Assembly: GCA_001600815.1 (NCBI GenBank)
Contig: BCKZ01000005.1
Coordinates: 805,727 to 849,354 of the forward strand
Source of the DNA: Alloascoidea hylecoeti
Lineage: Eukaryota
Reading direction: 5' to 3'
DNA: 43,628 bases
Shown here: in pieces, positions 1,270 to 38,301 of the stretch
How positions within the stretch are numbered: the first letter of the stretch is position 1
Layout: every line of letters begins with the position of its first letter
Translations under genes and position numbers: made by a program
Notes under the pieces: model-generated
Told to the model about the DNA's origin: nothing
Databases searched by the model: none
The model's input: only the letters and a program-made list of their open reading frames with translations

Positions 1270-2028
1270 ATGGCTGCCCAAACATCCAGTGTTCCAAGTG
1301 TTCAGGTATGCTCAATTTAAAATAATTATGTCGTATGATTATCGTCTGTAGTTTGCTGGTTAAATGTGAATTCATGAGATTTGGATAATATTTAATGAAA
1401 TTTGGACTTAGAATGAACGAATAAAGAAGATATATAAACCAATTCATTCAACATATCAATATATTATTATTACAACAAGAGATATTCAAATTTTAGAATC
1501 AGTCTAGTATCTAGTAAATTTGTTCGATATTTACAAACCATGGTTCAACAACAACAGACTTTAAATCACACGCATATGCTAAACAGATGATGAATAATTT
1601 CGCTAACTATATTATGATAGACGTTCGGTAAGAAGAAGACAGCTACCGCCGTTGCCCATGTCAAACAGGGTTCCGGTCTCATCAAGGTCAACGGCTCACC
1701 AATCACTCTTGTTGAACCTGAAATCCTTCGATTCAAAGTCTATGAACCTCTTTTAATCGTAGGTTTAGACAAATTTGCCAATATTGATATCAGAGTTAGA
1801 GTTACTGGTGGTGGTCACGTCTCTCAAGTTTATGCTATCCGTCAAGCTATTGCGAAAGGTGTTGTCGCTTATCATCAAAAATATGTCGATGAACAATCCA
1901 AGAATGAATTAAAGAAAGCTTTTGTCAGTTATGATAGAACATTATTGATTGCTGATTCAAGAAGATCAGAACCAAAGAAATTCGGTGGTCCAGGTGCCCG
2001 TGCCCGTTACCAAAAATCTTATCGTTAA
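1270..2028 (+). CDS. RPS16: 40S ribosomal protein S16 (uS9); exons 1270-1305 and 1621-2028
   Basis: [39 protein letters not shown]...[17 protein letters not shown]...[19 protein letters not shown]. Intron 1306-1620 has GTATGC, GCTAAC and TAG. Confidence 0.98.
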
Positions 2029-8911: not shown

Positions 8912-9091
8912 TCAAGAAGATGTGCCTCTAAAAACTCAAGGTAAACTTGGATCCGTTTTCGTATAAGAATGTAATTGATATTGAAAAATAAAAAACATAA
9001 CTATTTTAAGAACTGTGTAAGCCTTATAGATATATATCAGTATGGTATACAGCATGTAATGTACAATAATGCAAAACTAAATTTAAATCAA

Positions 9092-9740
9092 CTATTTCTT
9101 TGTAATCCATTTCACTAATTCCTTCCGCGATTCTTGAGCCGTTCTGAATACTAGACAAATATAAGTTAGTTATAAATTCCCTTGTGATGGGTAAAAATAA
9201 AAAAAATGACACTTACAGCTCTTTTCGAAGTCATCGAACAGTTCAGCGTATCGACTTTCTTGATCACTTCGTAAGTTACTAGCATAATCATAAATAGTAG
9301 CAGCTCGAGCTCTCAAAGCCTATGAAATTATTAGAAATTGACATCACATGAGTATAAAAATAGAAAGAAAAACTCACTTCACGAACAACATCTGCTAACT
9401 CACGATCTTCAAAAAGTCCTAACCACCTCTCAGCTAATTTATAAAACTGAGGCATAATTCTATGAAGATCAAGTACTGTGGCATCTGATTTTAACCAATT
9501 AATTACTGAATTACCAAGAAATTTGGGTCTTTTTATCGTCATCATAAATTCTTGAGTTGAACCTGTTAGTGTAGTTGTTGCAAGTGGTTCCGTAAGCCAC
9601 AGAGGTAGTTCTGTAACTGTTCCTTTAAAAACAGGACCTGACTGAGAATCTGTTAGAAAGCCTAAACCCTCAGCATCAAAGTTCACAGTACATTCGAGTC
9701 GTTCAAAATCAGCAGATATGTCGTCGAGATCATAATACAT
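9092..9740 (-). CDS. PSF3: GINS complex subunit Psf3; exons 9740-9378, 9319-9217, 9150-9092
   Basis: MYYDLDDI...GLGFL...ELPLWL...FYKLAERWL, continuing ALRARAATIYDYA..FDDFEKS|LFRTAQESRKELVKWITKK. Introns have GTGAGT and GTAAGT donors and TAG acceptors. Confidence 0.92.
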
Positions 9741-11912
9741 GTTGTGTGTGATTTGAAACTTCTATTCCGTTGAATAATAATAACATAGTTTATGACAAAT
9801 CAACCTCACATTGTTATGTAACACGCTATATTATTTATCACGTGAATAACTTCGGCGGAGACTTCAACCCGGGTGAAAGTATGCATAAGTTCCGGTATAG
9901 AGTATTCGATATCACTATAACAAATTGATTTATAATATGCTTATAAAAGGTATCAAACTTAGATTAGACTCAGAAGAATCTGGTAGAATTTATTATAAAT
10001 TTTATAAGCGTATGTCGTCCTTCAGAGCAGAGACCAAGTGAAATATATTTAATCTGCAGAAAGTGCACGTTTCAGCTGCTAATCAGGAGAGCGAGTCATG
10101 ACAATAGATATTCGAAAGAGCTCATATTTTCGATCCCCAAACCTTCTTGATTGTGTTGTCACGTGGACTTAATAAGCTTTATTTTATTTATATTACTTAT
10201 GAGAAAACAATTATACAATGAAATTGTGCTCTTTCTGTTACATGAAGCCCATATTTGACGTCCCTTACAGACTGTAATATAAACTAGTACAACACCATAT
10301 AGTTGGTTGGATTTGAATCTCATAACACTCAAATGGTGCTTGCACAACACTATAGAAGGATAATTATAAGATATATAGTTGTCTTATAGCTTCTAATTTG
10401 TATTTAAATCTCTGGGATATTGATGTAATTATTTGCATATGTATTCAATGAATATACAAGATCGTGAAAACTAATTATAACGTCAATGGAATTGCAATGT
10501 GCTACTTCAATTTTCTCAATAAGCCGATCCAGCAGTTGCGTACTAAAAAAGGTCACTAGAATCTATATAGCGTTGATATTTGTCGTATAGATTGGCGGGT
10601 CTTTGCTAATTAAAAGGGATCAAACCAGATCTCAGAATGGAGATCAGTAGGACTCACCACATGCCATGGCCACATTCATCGCTCTAAACATTGAAGTTAC
10701 ATCAAACGAATATTCTTTCGGTAATTATTTCTCTTTATTCAATATCTTACCAAACTTTTAATCCAAGTCAATATGGAATTTTGAGTAGTATGCTGATAAA
10801 TATTTACTCTTTTGTGGATAAACTGGTTGTAGGAACTTAAAGATTTTAATCTAAAATCCGAAATTAACCAGAAACACTCATACATACAATGTATTATATA
10901 ATTACCCTGAATCTATATTATGGCTCGGAATTTGATATATATATTTAAGCCATAAATAAAGATTAGATTGTATTGCGATTATTATACGATAATTATCTGT
11001 ACGTGTACAAGTAAACGTAAATCAATTGCGAGCTTTATAGGGTGGCAGTATGTAGGGCATAATAACTTGTTAGAATATCATTTATAATAGTGTGTTAGTA
11101 CCTCTGGGTAATCCTTTCCGTAAATAAATCGTTAGTATTCAGCTAGAAATATGAATATCGAATACTTAAAACTTATATGATGGCTATGTTTTGATGATAA
11201 TTGATCTTCATAGACCAATGTCAATTGTAATTACTATTTCAATCGCCTTTGAATTTACTTCATCTCTATATTAAGGTGTGGAGCGAATTTTGAAACATTA
11301 TTGCTGAATGGTTAATCAATATTAACATACTCAATCGTATATATACATTAAACACAATTGCAATGCAATTGACCCCGGAAATTTTGGATCACTCCAATTC
11401 ATATGAGTCCTAAGAAGACCATTGAATCATATAACTTATATATAGGACATATAAAGCATTATTATTTAGTGTATATATTATCGGTCTAATAGCATTGAAC
11501 AACGGAATTTGATCTTATCTAAAGAAATATTTGTAATAACATGAGCTAATAGATAATAAAATCACGAATAGTTATATATCTATCCTTGTTTGATTTAGAT
11601 TGACTTAAATAATTTTGTTTATAATATAAATTATATTTTGGTATTTACTTAGGAATCTTCTATATTTCCTTTTGTATAACATAATAAGAAATAAATCCGT
11701 AGTATAGGTACAACAATTGTATTGTTGTACAAGTATTGTTTAGTAAATGAAAAATCAATGAATGCAATGATTTTAAATATAAAAGACATATAAAGTGGTT
11801 TTAGACAAGGTGTTTTAAATATAGCTATATTATTAAAGAAATATAAAATAAGATCAATATCTTTTTCAGAAGTATAATTCAGAAAGTTAATTTGAAAATT
11901 TGAGTAGTGGTT

Positions 11913-27457: not shown

Positions 27458-28347
27458 TTATTTTCTAGTTCTGGGTTTTGAAACTCCTCCTCCTCTTCCT
27501 CCTCTATTCCCACCCCTATTTGATTTCATAGCATTTTGACGCATTCGTTGTTCAATATATTCAGTTCGTTTCTTCCGTTTTTCAATTAGTGCTTGTTCTT
27601 CCATCTCAGTCATTTCAATTAATTGTTGGGTATCAAATATTGGAGCCAGAAAAGTGTTTGATACTAAATATTAAGAGTTAATTAGAATATAATATAATAT
27701 AGGCCCAATATAAGAATATTAAACATACTATTACTTTCTTTTAAAACCTCGTTTATCCTTCTATCTCTATCTTTTTCCGTCTCTTCCTTATCATTATGAT
27801 TATTATTAGTATTGGCTGTTTGTTTACTTCTGCTAGGTTGTGATTGTGGGGTCTGTTTATCATCTTTGTAATTACTTGAGGCTGGTAGATCAACTTCGTG
27901 TAATCTTCCAAGCATTACTGATTTTGAAATTTCCTTTGATGAATTAAAAACTGATTTATAATCAAAAAATGTTGATTTATTTTCATTCTGAATACTTTGT
28001 GTGGGTGTTTCTAATGAAGATGAAACTTTATCTTTATTCTTTCGTTTGATAAGTTCAGATTCTATAAACGTCTCCCTATGCTATAATTAGTAATTATCAA
28101 GATCCAAAGGAAGAGAGAAGAGTAAAAATTAAAAAATTACACACAATTCTTTATCAGTTGCTTGTTTTTTCGCTTTGGTTGAGCCAGTGGCTATTGATTT
28201 TTTCGGGTGGGTAGAGACACAAAGACCCGTAGCTGGCCTCTTTCTCCGTATAGTGGATATATAATTGATAGCTGTGTCATCGTTGGTATCACTAGAGTCT
28301 TCATCCGGTGATCTTTGTCGCCTTTTTGAAGCATTCCGCTTGCTCAT
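27458..28347 (-). CDS. Tls1/C9orf78 (Hep_59 family) splicing-associated protein; exons 28347-28141, 28080-27729, 27663-27458 (254 aa)
   Basis: Introns GTAATT..TACTAAT..TAG and GTATGT..TAG join the ORF fragments. Motifs FIESELIKRK, MLGRLHEVDL and RDRRINEVLKES match fungal Hep_59 proteins as recalled. RGG-rich tail. Confidence 0.7.
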
Positions 28348-28601
28348 TGAAGGATTTCTTGGGTTGTTTATTAAAGTGATGTGGATCTATAATTGGTAGA
28401 GAACGTGACTTATAGTGTCAGCTGCAGCTTTTTAAACAGACATTGAGGTTAGGTACATAAATTAAATAATATTATTAATCACTATACAATAAAATAACTC
28501 TTCTGTACAATCTCGTGATACTCTTTTTGGAGGTTTATACATTTTTTCTAGATTCATCATCTCCGTATACCACCCCTTCAGTCTTGTAGCTATTTGAAAA
28601 G

Positions 28602-30162
28602 ATGCGTGAAATTGTCTCCATACAGTGTGGTCAAGCAGGTCCGTTTGTATATCTTTCCACTCGGTTTTAGAAAATGAAAACTAACCCCTTGTTCTATTTG
28701 TAGGGTATGCGCATTCCATTGTGTTCTAATCTATTAGCCACCTACTAACTCCTTTAAATTTTGAAGTAACCAAGTTGCAACCTCATTCTGGACTAATATT
28801 TTAAAAGAACATAGTATTAATCTAGATGGTACTATCTCCGAAGCTGCTGCAAATGATAAAGACAGAAATTCTCGTCTTGATGTCTTTTTCACCCAGATAG
28901 AGGCAGGTTTCAACTCCCCTACAAAATATGTACCACGTTCGATCGCTGTTGACTTGGAACCTGCTACTATTGATAACATTCGTAGTGGTCCCCTTGGAGG
29001 TCTGTTTAGGCCTGATAATATGTTACACGGAGACTCTGGTGCTGGAAATTCCTGGGCCAAAGGTTTCTATACCGAAGGCGCTGAAATTATGGAAAGCGTG
29101 ATGGATGTTGTTAGGAGAGAAGCTGAGAAGACAGATGCTTTACAAGGGTTTCAATTGACTCATAGTTTAGGTGGTGGTACTGGGTCTGGATTGGGTACTT
29201 TGCTTTTAAGTAGAATACGTGAGGAGTTCCCAGATCGAATGTTATCAACTTATTCTGTTTTACCAAGTGTTATTTCTGATACAATTACTGAGCCATATAA
29301 TGCCGTCTTGTCTGTCCATCAATTGGTTGAGAATGTTGATGCTACCTTCTGTATCGATAACGAAGCTTTAAACAAAATATGTTTAAACTCTTTAAAAATA
29401 CAACAGCCAAATTTTGAAGATTATAACAATTTGATTTCAAACGTAATGTCAGGAGTAACAACTTCTCTTAGATTCCCTGGTCAATTAAATGGTGATTTAA
29501 GAAAAATGGCTGTTAATTTAGTCCCATTTCCAAGATTACATTTCTTTGCTGTTGGCTTAGCTCCTCTAGTCTCTGAAAATTCACAAGCTTTTTATTCATT
29601 ATCAGTTCCTGAATTAACTGCTCAATTGTTTAGCGCAACAAGTTGTATGGCTGATATAAACCCATTTAACGGGAGATTTTTAACAATTTCAACAATGTTC
29701 CGTGGTACGAAATTATCAATGAAAGAAGTTGAAGATAGTATTTATCGTGCCCGGGATAAATATTCCCCATATTTTGTTGATTGGATCCCAAACAATATGC
29801 AAACAACTGTTTGTAATGTCCCACCCATTGGGGCAGCCACATCTGCAACTTTTGTTGCAAACACTACTGCAATTCAAGATGTCTTCCAAAGAGTTGGAGG
29901 TCAATTTACTGCGATGTTTAGAAGACGTGCATTTTTACAATGGTATACAAATGAAGGAATGGATGAATTGGAATTTCAAGAGGCTGAAAGTAATTTAAGA
30001 GACCTTGTTGCTGAATATGAGCAATATCAAGTTGCTACTGCTGAAGATGATTACGATTATGATCAGGAAGAACATGATGAACCATTACCTGAACACGAAG
30101 GAGAGTATGGTAGTCAAGCTCAAGACGGGTCTCATGTTGATAGTGCAATTTCAAAAGCTTAA
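28602..30162 (+). CDS. TUB2: Divergent beta-tubulin; exons 28602-28638, 28704 (1 nt), 28767-30162 (477 aa)
   Basis: [66 protein letters not shown] and [14 protein letters not shown] are beta-type motifs. Confidence 0.95.
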
Positions 30163-30798: not shown

Positions 30799-33700
30799 TC
30801 ATGATTTGACAATTCTGCAAACCAGATCATTTCCATCAACAGAATCACCTTCCTTAACCATTAGTTCACTAACAACACCGCTAACTGGAGCACTAATAAC
30901 CATTTCCATCTTCATTGCACTCAAAACAATGACGGGGTCACCCTTCTTAACATCACTACCATTATGAACTCTAACCTCAACAACAACACCAGCCATTGGT
31001 GCACCAATTTCATTTGGATTATGGGCATCAGCTTTTGGTCTTGTGATTGTTTCAACTGCTGCATGTTTATCATCTACAATAACTTTTCTCATTTCACCAT
31101 TCAATTCAAAATAAACTTCACGTTGTCCAGTTTGTTGAGATAATGCAGAAACAGCAGATAATTTAATAATTAATGTTTTACCTTTTTCAATTTCAATCCA
31201 CATCTCTTCATCGACTTCAGGTGGTGCTAAAAAGTATCGTGTTGGAATAACACTCAAATCACCATATGTTTCAATGAATGATTTATATTCTTCAAATACC
31301 TTTGGATACATATTATATGAAGCAACATCAGTATCATTAATATGTGTAAATCTACTTGTAAGATCTTTTTTAATCGCGGCAAGATCAAATGGAGCTAATG
31401 ATTTCCCTGGTCTTTCATATAATGCCTCTCTTTTATTCCTTAAAATATCTGTTCTTAATGGTTCAGGGAATCCTCCATATGGCTGTCCCATCATACCTTG
31501 GAAAAAATCGAGAACAGAAGCGGGGAAGTCTAAATTCGATGCTCTTTGACGAACCTCTTTTGCATCCAATTGATTTGACACCATAAACTGAGCTAAATCA
31601 CCAACCACTTTCGAAGTTGGTGTAACCTTCACAATATCTCCCAATAATTGATTAGCCTCAATATATGCTTTTTTAGTTTCTGCCCATTTTTCTCCCAAAC
31701 CAACTTGTTGTGCTTGAAATAATAAATTAGTTAATTGACCACCTGGAATTTCATGATCATAAACTTCTGGATCAGGGCCTTTCAAATCAGCTTCAAAGCA
31801 TGAGTATAATAATCTCATTTGTGCCCAATATGAATCAATTGCTTTAATTTGATTAGAATCTAAACCAGTTTCAATCTCCCCTTCTAATGTTGCAATTAAT
31901 GCACTGATTGATGGTTGGGAAGTCATTCCTGATAAACTATTTGATGCAGCATCAACAACATCAGCACCTGCTTTGGCACAAGCTGCCATTGAAGCAACAC
32001 CAGTACCAGCTGAATCATGTGTGTGAACGTGAATAGGTAAATTAGGATACTTCTTACGAATACTGCCAATTAATAATGTTGCAGCTCTTGGTTTTAAAGT
32101 TCCAGCCATATCTTTAATACCCAAAATATGAGTACCCATTGCAACAATTTTACCAACAGTTTCCAAGTAATAATCTAAAGTATATTTCTTGTGTTTTAAC
32201 ATATCACCTGAATAACAAACAGTAGCTTCAACAACACCACCGGCTTTTTTAACAGCATCAACACCTACTTTTAATTGTTCCAAATCATTAAGGGCATCAA
32301 ATACTCTAAAGATATCAACACCATTAATTTTTGCTTGATAAACAAAATGATCAATGGCATTATCTGGTAATGAAGAATAAGCAACTCCGTTAGCACCACG
32401 TAATAACATTTGAAATGGAATATTTGGAACAAGCTTTCGTAATTTTCGTAATCTTGACCATGGATCTTCATGTAGAAATCTTAAAGCCACATCAAATGTT
32501 GCACCACCCCAACATTCTAAGGCAAAAGCATTATTTAGGGCATGAGATGTTTGTGGAGCAATTTCAAGTAAATCTGCTGTTCTTACTCTTGTTGCTAATA
32601 AAGATTGATGTGCATCTCTCCACGTTGTATCCATAATAAGTGTTCCTTTATACTCACGTACAGCCTTTGAGAATGCTTCAGGACCTTGACTAACAAGAAT
32701 ATTTCTCCATCCAGTAGCAGAAGGTTCAGAAACATCAATTTCGGAACCAGTTAAGTTATCTGTAATTGTTGGTAAAATAGCCTCTGTTTTTAACTTAGGT
32801 AAACCAACTTGACCTTTGATTGATGATCCATTGACAACTAAATCAGCTAAATATAATAATAGTTTTGAAGCTCTATTTTGTGAAGTTAACATTTCAAATA
32901 ATTTTGGAGTATCATCAATAAATGTTGTCCAACAATTACCTCTTATAAAGGTTTCATTAGTTAATAAAGCCAATAAAAATGGGATATTTGTTTTAACACC
33001 ACGGATTCTGAATTCAATTAATGCCCTTATCATCTTTCTTCTTGCAATTTCATATGTTGCACCGGAACATGTGCATTTAACCAACATTGAATCATAATGT
33101 GGAGATATAACAGCACCTGCAAAATTATTACCACCGTCTAATCTGATTCCATTACCACCAGATGATCTATACACTTCAATTTTACCAGTATCTGGCTGGA
33201 AATTTTTTGTTGGATCCTCAGTTGTTATACGACATTGAATTGCATAACCTCTAAGATTAATTCTTTCTTGTGTAAGACCTAATTGTGGTAATGAAGCACC
33301 AGCAGCAATTTGAATTTGAGCAGCAACCAAATCAACACCAGTAATTTCTTCGGTGATCGTATGTTCAACTTGAATTCTTGGATTAATTTCAATAAAATAG
33401 TGACGATTTTGTTCATCAACTAAAAATTCAGCTGTTCCTGCATTACGGTAATTAACACTTTTCGCAAGTTTAACGGCATCTTCTAAGATAGCAGCTTGAA
33501 CATGAACTGGTAATTTTCCAGCAGGTGCTAATTCAACGACTTTCTGATGACGTCTTTGAACTGAACAATCTCTTTCATATAAATGAATACAATTCCCTTG
33601 ACCATCTGCTAACAATTGAACCTCAATATGCTTTGGTTTGTCTAAAAACCTCTCAATGAAAACAGTACCGTTTCCAAAGGCAGTTTTTGCTTCGGATGTA

Positions 33701-34323
33701 GCTCTATTAAAAGCGTCTTGAATATCATCACCTTCACGAACAACTCTCATACCTCTACCACCACCACCAAAAGCAGCTTTGATAATAACTGGATATCCAT
33801 ATTCTTTTACGAACTTATGGGCATCCTCAATTTTTTCAATAGGACCTGGTGTTCCGGGAACGACAGGAACATCATTTGCAATAGCAATTCTTCTGGCAGA
33901 TACCTTATCACCGACGGAATCAATAACATGTGCAGGTGGGCCAACCCATGAAATCCCAGCTTTTTCTACCTTTTCAGCAAATTCAGAATTTTCAGATAAA
34001 AATCCATACCCTGGATGTATCATATCAACTCCATGTTGCTTGGCAATTTTAATAATCTCATCAATTTGTAAATAGGCTTGAACGGGAGTAAATTGATTCT
34101 TTTTCCCAATAACATATGCCTCATCAGCCTTTAGTCTATGCATTGAAAGTCTATCTTCATGTGAGTATATGGCAACTGTATGAAGAGACAATTCATGGGA
34201 AGACCTGAAGATTCTAATTGCTATCTCACCTCTGTTGGCCACTAGGACCTTTGTCATGGGGCCAAGAATGGCTGAATCCGAACGGATGTGTCCAAAGGAG
34301 GGAACACCTGGAGTAGAAGTCAT
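30799..34323 (-). CDS. PYC1: Pyruvate carboxylase
   Basis: Biotin carboxylase (VANRGEIA, ERDCSVQRRHQK), carboxyltransferase (RDAHQSLLATR) and biotinyl domain (AMKM). Confidence 0.98.
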   Translation of the reverse strand: MTSTPGVPSFGHIRSDSAILGPMTKVLVANRGEIAIRIFRSSHELSLHTVAIYSHEDRLSMHRLKADEAYVIGKKNQFTPVQAYLQIDEIIKIAKQHGVDMIHPGYGFLSENSEFAEKVEKAGISWVGPPAHVIDSVGDKVSARRIAIANDVPVVPGTPGPIEKIEDAHKFVKEYGYPVIIKAAFGGGGRGMRVVREGDDIQDAFNRATSEAKTAFGNGTVFIERFLDKPKHIEVQLLADGQGNCIHLYERDCSVQRRHQKVVELAPAGKLPVHVQAAILEDAVKLAKSVNYRNAGTAEFLVDEQNRHYFIEINPRIQVEHTITEEITGVDLVAAQIQIAAGASLPQLGLTQERINLRGYAIQCRITTEDPTKNFQPDTGKIEVYRSSGGNGIRLDGGNNFAGAVISPHYDSMLVKCTCSGATYEIARRKMIRALIEFRIRGVKTNIPFLLALLTNETFIRGNCWTTFIDDTPKLFEMLTSQNRASKLLLYLADLVVNGSSIKGQVGLPKLKTEAILPTITDNLTGSEIDVSEPSATGWRNILVSQGPEAFSKAVREYKGTLIMDTTWRDAHQSLLATRVRTADLLEIAPQTSHALNNAFALECWGGATFDVALRFLHEDPWSRLRKLRKLVPNIPFQMLLRGANGVAYSSLPDNAIDHFVYQAKINGVDIFRVFDALNDLEQLKVGVDAVKKAGGVVEATVCYSGDMLKHKKYTLDYYLETVGKIVAMGTHILGIKDMAGTLKPRAATLLIGSIRKKYPNLPIHVHTHDSAGTGVASMAACAKAGADVVDAASNSLSGMTSQPSISALIATLEGEIETGLDSNQIKAIDSYWAQMRLLYSCFEADLKGPDPEVYDHEIPGGQLTNLLFQAQQVGLGEKWAETKKAYIEANQLLGDIVKVTPTSKVVGDLAQFMVSNQLDAKEVRQRASNLDFPASVLDFFQGMMGQPYGGFPEPLRTDILRNKREALYERPGKSLAPFDLAAIKKDLTSRFTHINDTDVASYNMYPKVFEEYKSFIETYGDLSVIPTRYFLAPPEVDEEMWIEIEKGKTLIIKLSAVSALSQQTGQREVYFELNGEMRKVIVDDKHAAVETITRPKADAHNPNEIGAPMAGVVVEVRVHNGSDVKKGDPVIVLSAMKMEMVISAPVSGVVSELMVKEGDSVDGNDLVCRIVKS

Positions 34324-36758: not shown

Positions 36759-38221
36759 TCAATAAAAATTTTTCAGCATCATAGGGTTTCCTCTTCCAAA
36801 TGTTTGAACTTCAGATTTCACGGTTTCATTCATATGAGCATTAATTCTGTCAAATCTTTGATGCCACTTCTTAACCATACGCACATATAACCAACGCAAA
36901 ATCGATGCCTTAATATCAACACTACCACTCACAATAATAACAGTATTAGCGTTTTCTAAAGGTTTCCTTTCTAACAATGTATTTCTTAAAAAAACTCTAT
37001 CTTTCGAAGTATCATTATTTGCCGTATCCATATTCGAACTTTCCAAAACATCTTGTTCAACTTCATTTAATTCCGATTTCTTAGCTCCACAGTCGTTTGA
37101 TTTCATTTCCCCTAATTCGTTTTCGTTTGCTATTACCAGCTCTAACCCAGTTTCTTTTTGTATCAGCTCAACTAGTTCATCTTCATTTTCTAATACTTCT
37201 TCTAATTCAAATTCCTTTGTTGCATCATTAACCCTTCTCGTAGATTTAAAAACATCATCATCTAATTTACTATCTTCTTTAATCACCAAATCAAGCTCAT
37301 ATTTCTTTGACGCAATTAAACTCCAACCAACATCCTGTTGGGATTCAGGCCCAGATGTAACACCACTATCCGTTTCGAACATAATCAGCATTTATCACTT
37401 TATCTACCATATCAACCTCCTCTTGAGGGTCTGGTCTAAGATCAAAGTGTTTCCTATCATTCAATTTGGTGTTTCTACCTTCCAGATCTCCTGAAACTTC
37501 ACAGTCATAATTTAAGCTGGTGGCCATGATTTCTGCATAAATCACTTGCTGATTACTTGCACCACTTGCTAAGGGTTTCGTCAACTTGCTGTTGCAATAA
37601 CGTGTAAAATGTCCCGTTGCTCTACATTTAAAGCATCGTCTTTCTCTGACTAACAACTATCTTTCCCTTGCTGTCAAATTCACCTCTACTCTATCTAATC
37701 TTGGAGAATATTGATTAACATTGAATTGCTGCTCATTCATTCGTGGATTTGTGTCCCAAGCTTGATTATATCTCTGATTATTGCTCTCCGGCTCCCTTAG
37801 ATCCCACCGTGGCTTACCCCTTTGACGGGATGGATACATGATATTATCTATATCAATTGCCTTCCCATAAGCATCCTCTAAAGATCTCCGTTAGTACAAT
37901 TGTAATTGTAATTTGATGTTATGTTTGAGACCATTGATGAACCGATCCAATAACGCTCTCTCAGACAGGAAATTTGTTGTAGAAAGTGTCCTTAATGCCA
38001 TTTTCAAAATCTGTAAATGTGCCGAAACTTTGCGAAATATACCAATTTAATGCACGACCTGTTAAATAGAGCCCAGCATACCCAAGTTTGTTGATCTCAT
38101 CATCAACTCTTCCTAATCTGAACCTAAGTTTGATACCGTTCAACCAGGCATCTAGGTCTTCTGCAACCCGTGACCTTTCGTATGGTCTCAATTCCGGCGG
38201 TCTTAAACTAAACATTGACAT
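36759..38221 (-). pseudogene. Disrupted gag with an acidic downstream extension
   Basis: LDAWLNGIKLRF..AGLYLTGRALNWY (retrotransposon gag), DRFINGLK after a frameshift near 37960, CFKCRATGHFTRYC zinc knuckle, an in-frame TAG at 37657-37659 and a further frameshift near 37380. Confidence 0.85.
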
Positions 38222-38301
38222 GAGTTTTGACAAATACCAAATCTAGCAGATCAAACAATCATCAATCCTGTGTCTTCAGATCGTGATGCGCCGCTACCAA
38301 G

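Follow-up and report, generated by a model that had tools for sequence, protein, structure and literature searches.

How is a single glycine codon assembled when its three bases lie in three separate places on the chromosome? This question is raised by a beta-tubulin gene within a 43,628-nucleotide (nt) stretch of the Alloascoidea hylecoeti genome (assembly GCA_001600815.1, contig BCKZ01000005.1, positions 805,727 to 849,354), which is called the window hereafter. The gene is a divergent 'beta-2'-type beta-tubulin of early-branching budding yeasts, as judged from its N-terminus, its place in a tree and its domains. A first-pass annotation, made from the letters of the window, had proposed that the Gly13 codon of this gene is completed by an exon consisting of one G. 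In this study, the core of that proposal was found to be right and the one-base exon to be a real feature: judging from its sequence, the gene very probably has a one-base exon with a complete small intron on either side. The best explanation of the locus, to which we assign a probability of roughly 0.8, is that the Gly13 codon, which belongs to the guanosine triphosphate (GTP)-binding GQxGNQ loop, is interrupted twice, that position 28704 is an internal one-base exon, that the flanking introns are removed in two reactions, and that the layout is old.

The interrupted Gly13 codon

The coordinates and motifs given in the first-pass annotation were each present in the sequence, exact to the base (Table 1). 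A single base separates two introns, both of them complete: a 5' splice site, a branch site and a 3' splice site are present in each, normally spaced, and the reading frames confirmed that the Gly13 codon is built from three exons, which contribute G, G and T, respectively. The three-exon coding sequence is open in the joined translation, with a length of 1434 nt and 477 amino acids (aa). Moreover, exon 3, with an open frame of 465 codons, matched the Pfam domains Tubulin (1.9e-52) and Tubulin_C (3.5e-31).

The alternative splice models within the sequence were enumerated as single-intron models with GT/GC-AG or AT-AC ends that keep the frame open. None of the 40 canonical in-frame models obtained in this manner yielded GQAGNQ, which upheld the claim that no canonical single intron restores the conserved product. 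When the GTTTGT donor at 28643 was joined to the outer acceptor at 28766, the frame remained open (478 aa) and acquired an extra proline, GQAG-P-NQ; an in-frame model of this type is the kind that gene predictors fall back on. With the following AG, at 28774, as its acceptor, the outer donor gave 474 aa and lost GNQ; these two models come closest to the conserved product. Early stops were encountered in four other forms, namely the form in which the outer donor is joined to the outer acceptor so that the G is skipped (24 aa, which is the frameshift that had been foreseen), the form from which intron 1 alone is removed (20 aa), the form from which intron 2 alone is removed (22 aa) and the unspliced form (22 aa). 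In addition, one model that was absent from the first-pass annotation was found, which removes one intron whose ends are non-canonical (GT..AA at 28639-28765, equal to TC..AG at 28640-28766). This model gives the identical mRNA, and thus the mature mRNA by itself does not separate it from the one-base exon.

To what extent chance could produce the internal signals was assessed by shuffling, with dinucleotides preserved, the interior of the stretch between exons 1 and 3, 20000 times each for the window and for the orthologous locus L001 that is described below. The internal signature, defined as ACTAAC, 5-45 nt, YAG or AAG, one base and GTNNG, occurred in 4/20000 shuffles of the window and in 0/20000 shuffles of the ortholog. 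With regard to a possible origin through tandem duplication of one intron, the two introns were also aligned with each other, and the score was matched by 49/2000 shuffles in the window and 11/2000 in L001; the similarity resides mostly in the common branch site, the T-run and the 3' end. An Rfam search of 28300-29000 with E up to 1 returned no match, so the introns host no known RNA.

The possibility that a base is missing from the assembly had been named as a condition under which a single intron would suffice. Contigs from three studies were therefore compared over 28300-29640, originating from the runs X1 (2023), X2 (2016) and X4 (a wood-decay metagenome, 2020), each of which is a possible source of the window assembly, so that at most one is non-independent. 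These contigs contained 0, 0 and 1 differing letters, respectively, and no indels, and no difference was listed within 28602-28790. A further run, X5, covered parts of the gene, the intron region lying outside its coverage. The agreement of the contigs of three studies without indels leaves the missing-base scenario unsupported.

Table 1. Coordinates and splice signals of the beta-tubulin gene, of its ortholog L001 and of other intron-containing genes in the window
Feature	Position	Strand	Length	Signals and remarks
Exon 1	28602..28638	+		begins with ATG; 12 codons and the first G of the Gly13 codon
Intron 1	28639..28703	+	65 nt	5' splice site GTCCGT 28639-28644; 3' splice site TAG 28701-28703
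Intron 1 branch site	28679-28685	+		AACTAAC (ACTAAC 28680-28685); branch A 28684, 19 nt from the 3' end
Decoy donor in intron 1	28643..28648	+		GTTTGT, 4 nt into intron 1; with the outer acceptor gives in-frame GQAG-P-NQ
One-base exon	28704..28704	+		G, second base of the Gly13 codon; context TAG-G-GTATGC
Intron 2	28705..28766	+	62 nt	5' splice site GTATGC 28705-28710; 3' splice site AAG 28764-28766
Intron 2 branch site	28743-28749	+		TACTAAC; branch A 28748, 18 nt from the 3' end
Exon 3	28767..30162	+		T (third base of Gly13), then NQVATSFW...; starts T AAC CAA; TAA 30160-30162
L001 exon 1	2537-2501		37 nt	
L001 intron 1			69 nt	GTATGT...AACTAACCC...TTTAG
L001 one-base exon	2431			G; junction AG-G-GTATG
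L001 intron 2			90 nt	GTATGA...TATTAAC...TTGTAG
L001 exon 3 start				A AAC CAA
RPS16 (ribosomal protein S16) gene	1270-2028	+		Pfam Ribosomal_S9 6e-38; exon 1 = 12 codons, 1270-1305
RPS16 intron	1306-1620	+	315 nt	GTATGC; branch site GCTAAC; TAG
PSF3 (GINS subunit) gene	about 9080-9761	-		two short introns; splicing restores a continuous frame
PSF3 intron	9377-9320	-	58 nt	GTGAGT; CTAAT; TAG
PSF3 intron	9216-9151	-	66 nt	GTAAGT; AACTAAC; TAG

The Geotrichum-like ortholog and the public gene models

Orthologs were sought with a degenerate pattern for the exon-1 peptide, which was found at one locus, L001, in metagenome contigs and at no locus in prokaryote genome contigs. The protein encoded by L001 is 96% identical to the beta-2 tubulin (TBB2) of Geotrichum candidum and 64% identical to the A. 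hylecoeti protein. The one-base exon occupies the same codon position in L001, where its flanking introns span 2500-2432 and 2430-2341, and in A. hylecoeti, and hence the comparison of ortholog intron positions that had been recommended returned the same two-intron, one-base layout at the same codon. Furthermore, exon 1 of A. hylecoeti and exon 1 of L001 are identical in 35/37 bases, and both differences are synonymous. This match contrasts with the 32% G+C of the window and with the 64% overall protein identity, and the RNA sequence of exon 1 may be under constraint. When the two loci were aligned, intron 1 of A. hylecoeti corresponded to the 69-nt intron 1 of L001, and islands of conservation were seen at exon 1, the first branch site, the TAG-G-GTATG junction, the branch site of intron 2 and the acceptor.

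Translated over its three exons, L001 gives 452 aa that agree at every residue with the protein P0127, which was called as one uninterrupted open reading frame (ORF) on 22 contigs, the longest of which has 1917 nt. On 180 other contigs of up to 3.8 Mb, the same caller gave only P0126, an exon-3 ORF that starts from an internal TTG; the A. hylecoeti protein P0008 was likewise begun at an internal TTG by the ORF caller without splicing. Because the caller does not splice and the long contigs give only P0126, P0127 very likely comes from spliced transcripts. A spliced mRNA consisting of exon 1, the G and exon 3 thus very likely exists in the Geotrichum lineage. Another entry, P0134, belongs to the cluster of G. 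candidum TBB2 and is an ORF on a 1456-nt contig that reads VVKQESQVSTAFW: an out-of-frame exon 1 is followed by ES and by an in-frame exon 3. P0134 does not correspond to any simple splice form of L001; it may be erroneous or represent an unusual transcript.

The public gene models were informative at exactly this site. Among the 42 beta-2-type proteins with the exon-1 peptide, 32 were intact and 10 were aberrant precisely at Gly13, comprising eight insertions, one GNQ deletion (G. candidum CLIB 918) and one intron read-through (Lipomyces starkeyi NRRL Y-11557). The inserted residues are I in Nadsonia and in the original G. candidum GenBank entry, M in Swiss-Prot P32925, T in one L. tetrasporus model (other models of this species being intact), N in Dipodascopsis uninucleata, ML in L. 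starkeyi, TY in L. kononenkoae and YISSS in Limtongia. For the G. candidum gene, three differing models have been published, namely P0125 (with the extra I), P0045 (with the extra M) and P0121 (without GNQ). In the first protein search, 92 of the 97 proteins with a visible N-terminus were intact, all with GQ[CA]GNQ uninterrupted, and the five with insertions were all of the beta-2 type.

These anomalies can be read in terms of splice sites. The insertions of one and two residues equal the coding of a donor shifted by +4 and +7 nt (GT-AT, GT-AC or GT-AA plus the first base of exon 3), and the A. hylecoeti counterpart of these shifted-donor insertions is the model with the extra proline. Since the outer donor and the outer acceptor together are 1 nt short of being in frame, such insertions are the expected symptom. 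In six of the seven sequences that read through the 3' end of the intron, NQ is preceded by an R or S codon (AGN), which fits a conserved acceptor in which AG is followed by any base. A shared two-intron layout explains why the public models disagree at exactly this spot, an explanation that is indirect for the species beyond L001. Intronless relatives served as length markers: contiguous GQAGNQ is encoded on long contigs of the Yarrowia type (22.9 and 39.1 kb), by P0129 and P0130 (9.2 and 11.5 kb), by P0040 (5.5 kb) and by the Wickerhamiella type. The uninterrupted N-terminal ORF of the Yarrowia and Wickerhamiella types fits a loss of both introns. In the L. starkeyi read-through, P0148, the internal junction was looked for, and no stretch could encode AG-G-GTATG.

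The A. hylecoeti protein forms a long branch and is 62-71% identical to every beta-tubulin compared; no full-length protein from A. hylecoeti was present in the protein search. In the tree, it was placed inside the beta-2-type clade (22 rows; Shimodaira-Hasegawa-like approximate likelihood ratio test, SH-aLRT, 100), which is separate from canonical TUB2. This clade is characterized by the N-terminus MREIVS(I/L)QCGQAGNQ and includes G. candidum TBB2, Yarrowia, Nadsonia, Trichomonascus, Wickerhamiella, Tortispora and the Lipomyces family. The long branch pairs with another long branch (P0067), and its exact position inside the clade is uncertain. At 29134-29201, short contigs of X1, X2 and X4 show a match of about 85% that is limited to the GGGTGSG region, beyond which their sequence diverges. 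These contigs represent other tubulin-family genes of the same organism, one of which reads like a second beta-tubulin, and therefore the long-branch gene may not be the sole beta-tubulin.

Proposed splicing mechanism and competing explanations

According to the proposed mechanism, the spliceosome would remove the two introns in two separate reactions, and either order would be workable. Removal of intron 1 first would leave ...GCAG-G-GTATGC, whereas removal of intron 2 first would leave ...TGTAG-G-TAACC, and each of these is a canonical substrate. U1 and U5 contact few exon-side bases at a 5' splice site. At the 5' splice site of intron 2, these exon-side contacts would take in the 3' splice site of intron 1, so that both introns should not be processed at once. 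Joining of the outer sites would skip the G, and the resulting 24-aa product would be non-functional, its mRNA probably being a target of nonsense-mediated decay. The arrangement had been called twintron-like, but it is not a strict twintron, since neither intron lies inside the other or interrupts the splice signals of the other. It had also been suggested that the arrangement may record an intron gain or sliding event. A recent event of this kind found no support, because the same layout, at the same codon position, occurs in a lineage with only 64% protein identity, which argues that the layout is old; the one-base exon is probably ancient.

One competing explanation, raised in the first-pass annotation, holds that the weak GTCCGT donor allows the G to be skipped and that such skipping, under regulation, acts as an on/off switch for this tubulin. 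Skipping does lead to an early stop after 24 aa, and GTCCGT deviates from the other donors in the window. However, the ortholog L001 carries the consensus donor GTATGT at the same place, so that the weakness of the donor is not a conserved feature, and short introns would fit recognition of each as its own unit, which would make skipping uncommon. The switch is thus unsupported, and we regard it as improbable.

The single intron of 127 nt with non-canonical ends, which would be removed in a single reaction and would leave no one-base exon, has in its favour that its boundaries give exactly GQAGNQ; the mature mRNA, including P0127 in the ortholog, is compatible with it. This model is nevertheless very unlikely. 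The dinucleotides that it requires differ by species, AA in the window and TA in L001, whereas the AG-G-GTATG junction and the branch site upstream of it are kept in both, a combination that proved to be rare in the shuffles. Moreover, to our knowledge there is no mechanism for cleavage one base off a canonical GT or AG.

A canonical GT-AG intron from the GTTTGT donor to the outer acceptor, with GQAG-P-NQ as the real protein, is in frame and open, its donor keeps G1, T2, G5 and T6, as does GTCCGT, and public models with one extra residue exist. Several observations make it very unlikely as well. The Geotrichum-like ortholog has the uninterrupted P0127 without an extra residue; the added residue would vary with the species (P, I, M, T or N) and tracks the splice-site hexamer, not a conserved codon; GQ[CA]GNQ is unbroken in the 92 intact proteins; and GQAGNQ is contiguous in the orthologs found on long contigs, namely the Yarrowia type, the Wickerhamiella type, P0129 and P0040. 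In addition, this intron would not account for the conserved splice signals inside the stretch. Finally, a broken N-terminus, be it through a pseudogene, an assembly error or a downstream translation start, would agree with the long branch and with the other tubulin-family contigs in the same runs, among which a second beta-tubulin could carry the essential function, but it is the least probable of these alternatives, given that exon 3 is open over all its codons with full Tubulin and Tubulin_C matches, exon 1 is almost identical to that of the ortholog, every splice signal is intact, the contigs of the three studies agree without indels, and the same layout is found in a relative whose spliced form is very likely expressed.

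Several points weigh against the one-base exon and should be considered together. The GTCCGT donor is unusual, as the three other introns inspected inside the window for comparison of splice signals use GTATGC, GTAAGT and GTGAGT, and a second donor-like hexamer, GTTTGT, is present 4 nt downstream, from which an in-frame product with an extra proline results. The mature mRNA fits both a one-base exon and a single intron with non-canonical ends. The transcript origin of the P0127 contigs is itself deduced from their ORFs, the comparison at the DNA level covers one orthologous locus, and the wider distribution rests on anomalies of protein models. In P0148, an internal AGM could encode AG directly before GTATG, and the architecture of L. 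starkeyi may differ. In A. hylecoeti, the one-base exon is known from genomic sequence.

A wider proposal may be put forward tentatively, as one that we consider slightly less probable than its opposite. It states that the one-base exon is ancient, predating the split between A. hylecoeti and Geotrichum and perhaps that from the Lipomyces family, that its splicing is obligately two-step and recursive-like, and that it belongs to a recurrent AG-G-GT class which annotation has missed. If this were true, organisms with strict yeast-type splice signals would have preserved a one-base exon in one of their cytoskeletal genes over a very long period, the spliceosome would have a single exonic base to hold, and the AG-G-GT class, including this tubulin and the Fusarium CYP621A gene discussed below, would not be a curiosity.

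Neighbouring introns, known small exons and significance

The introns of RPS16 and PSF3 are similar in their signals to those of the tubulin gene, and the two PSF3 introns, with 58 and 66 nt, are also close to them in length, so that an intron size near 60 nt together with such signals is normal here, GTCCGT being the exception. In particular, the 5' splice site of the RPS16 intron, GTATGC, is the same hexamer as that of tubulin intron 2. A further candidate intron at 38081-37878 (minus strand), with GTATGC and TACTAAC, was rejected, as the sequence there resembles a degenerate Ty3-type gag interrupted by stops. This gag-like stretch, at about 37560-38230 (minus strand), has stops in its frame and, towards its end, a motif similar to a zinc knuckle; it matches Ty3_capsid only weakly, with an E of 0.0038 that falls below the cutoff. 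Immediately upstream of the tubulin gene, at 27685-28386 (minus strand), a gene of the Hep_59 family was recognized (E 8.5e-06), which is apparently split by an intron of about 64-69 nt with GTGTGT, TACTAAT and TAG at either of two nearby AGs. Directly downstream, and convergent with the tubulin gene, lies an intronless pyruvate carboxylase gene of 1174 aa at 30799-34323 (minus strand).

Recursive splicing at zero-length exons, the ratchet points in which AG abuts GT, is known from very long introns of Drosophila and vertebrates and leaves no base behind. The tubulin gene resembles such recursive sites in that a 3' splice site directly precedes a regenerated 5' splice site and removal would be stepwise, whereas its introns have 62-65 nt and one coding base is kept between AG and GT. 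A zero-length recursive site was rejected for this locus, since TAG is followed by G and then by GTATGC, so that AG does not abut GT. Stwintrons of the types [D1,2] and [D1,2]/[A2,3], as presented by Fekete et al. (2017, PMC5587772), require two consecutive splicing reactions at one place in a fungal gene, as is proposed for the tubulin gene, and share with it intron positions one base apart. In a stwintron, unlike the tubulin gene, the internal intron interrupts a splice signal of the external intron and nothing is retained in the mRNA (PMC5587772). Stwintron parses of 28638-28767 were rejected, because none has an internal intron that interrupts an external signal and one base must remain.

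One-base exons in print appear to be only two. The single-nucleotide exon of Arabidopsis APC11 is constitutive, lies between canonical introns and was demonstrated with green fluorescent protein (GFP) fusions, as described by Guo & Liu (2015, PMC4674806). Like the tubulin exon, it is an internal exon of one base between two canonical introns, and it was found through a wrong database complementary DNA (cDNA) and gene model (PMC4674806). The two cases differ in that APC11 is a plant gene whose base is A (A333) and was shown experimentally (PMC4674806), whereas the tubulin base is a G inside a glycine codon that is conserved between distant yeasts and the case is known from sequence. The cytochrome P450 gene CYP621A of Fusarium, whose description counts it as the second case altogether and the first from the fungi (PMC12940212, 2026), has several features in common with the tubulin gene: it is fungal, its exon stands in the identical AG-G-GT context and restores a conserved motif together with the frame, most automatic models are wrong there, and an intronless relative was used as a length marker (PMC12940212). 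CYP621A, however, is a P450 that is seldom expressed and belongs to a single mould genus, with support from reads of the Sequence Read Archive (SRA) (PMC12940212), whereas the tubulin is a core cytoskeletal gene of budding yeasts, in lineages whose proteins are only 64% identical. The findings by which exons of the APC11 and CYP621A kind are recognized were also made here, namely two complete introns, no canonical single-intron route and a layout kept in an ortholog. No paper describing this tubulin exon was found in the literature as covered by main texts, and term look-ups found no mention of it in the papers on the complex introns of Lipomyces, Fusarium CYP621A, the T. vanleenenianus genome, Yarrowia splicing and the G. 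candidum genome. The tubulin exon thus adds to a known but very small class.

The finding accounts for errors in the databases, among them the three conflicting models of G. candidum beta-2 tubulin, including a Swiss-Prot entry with an extra methionine, and the extra residues or deletions in the GTP-binding loop of the Nadsonia, Lipomyces, Dipodascopsis and Limtongia models. Furthermore, two introns that lie one base apart in one codon represent a co-existing state, from which the loss of either intron would look like "intron sliding by one base". The host gene is conserved, presumably well expressed and common to distant lineages, which makes the retention of one base testable by mutation and by nascent-RNA sequencing. 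The one-base exon of beta-2 tubulin thereby bears on how small an exon can be, in budding yeasts, where the spliceosome and the splice signals are best understood.

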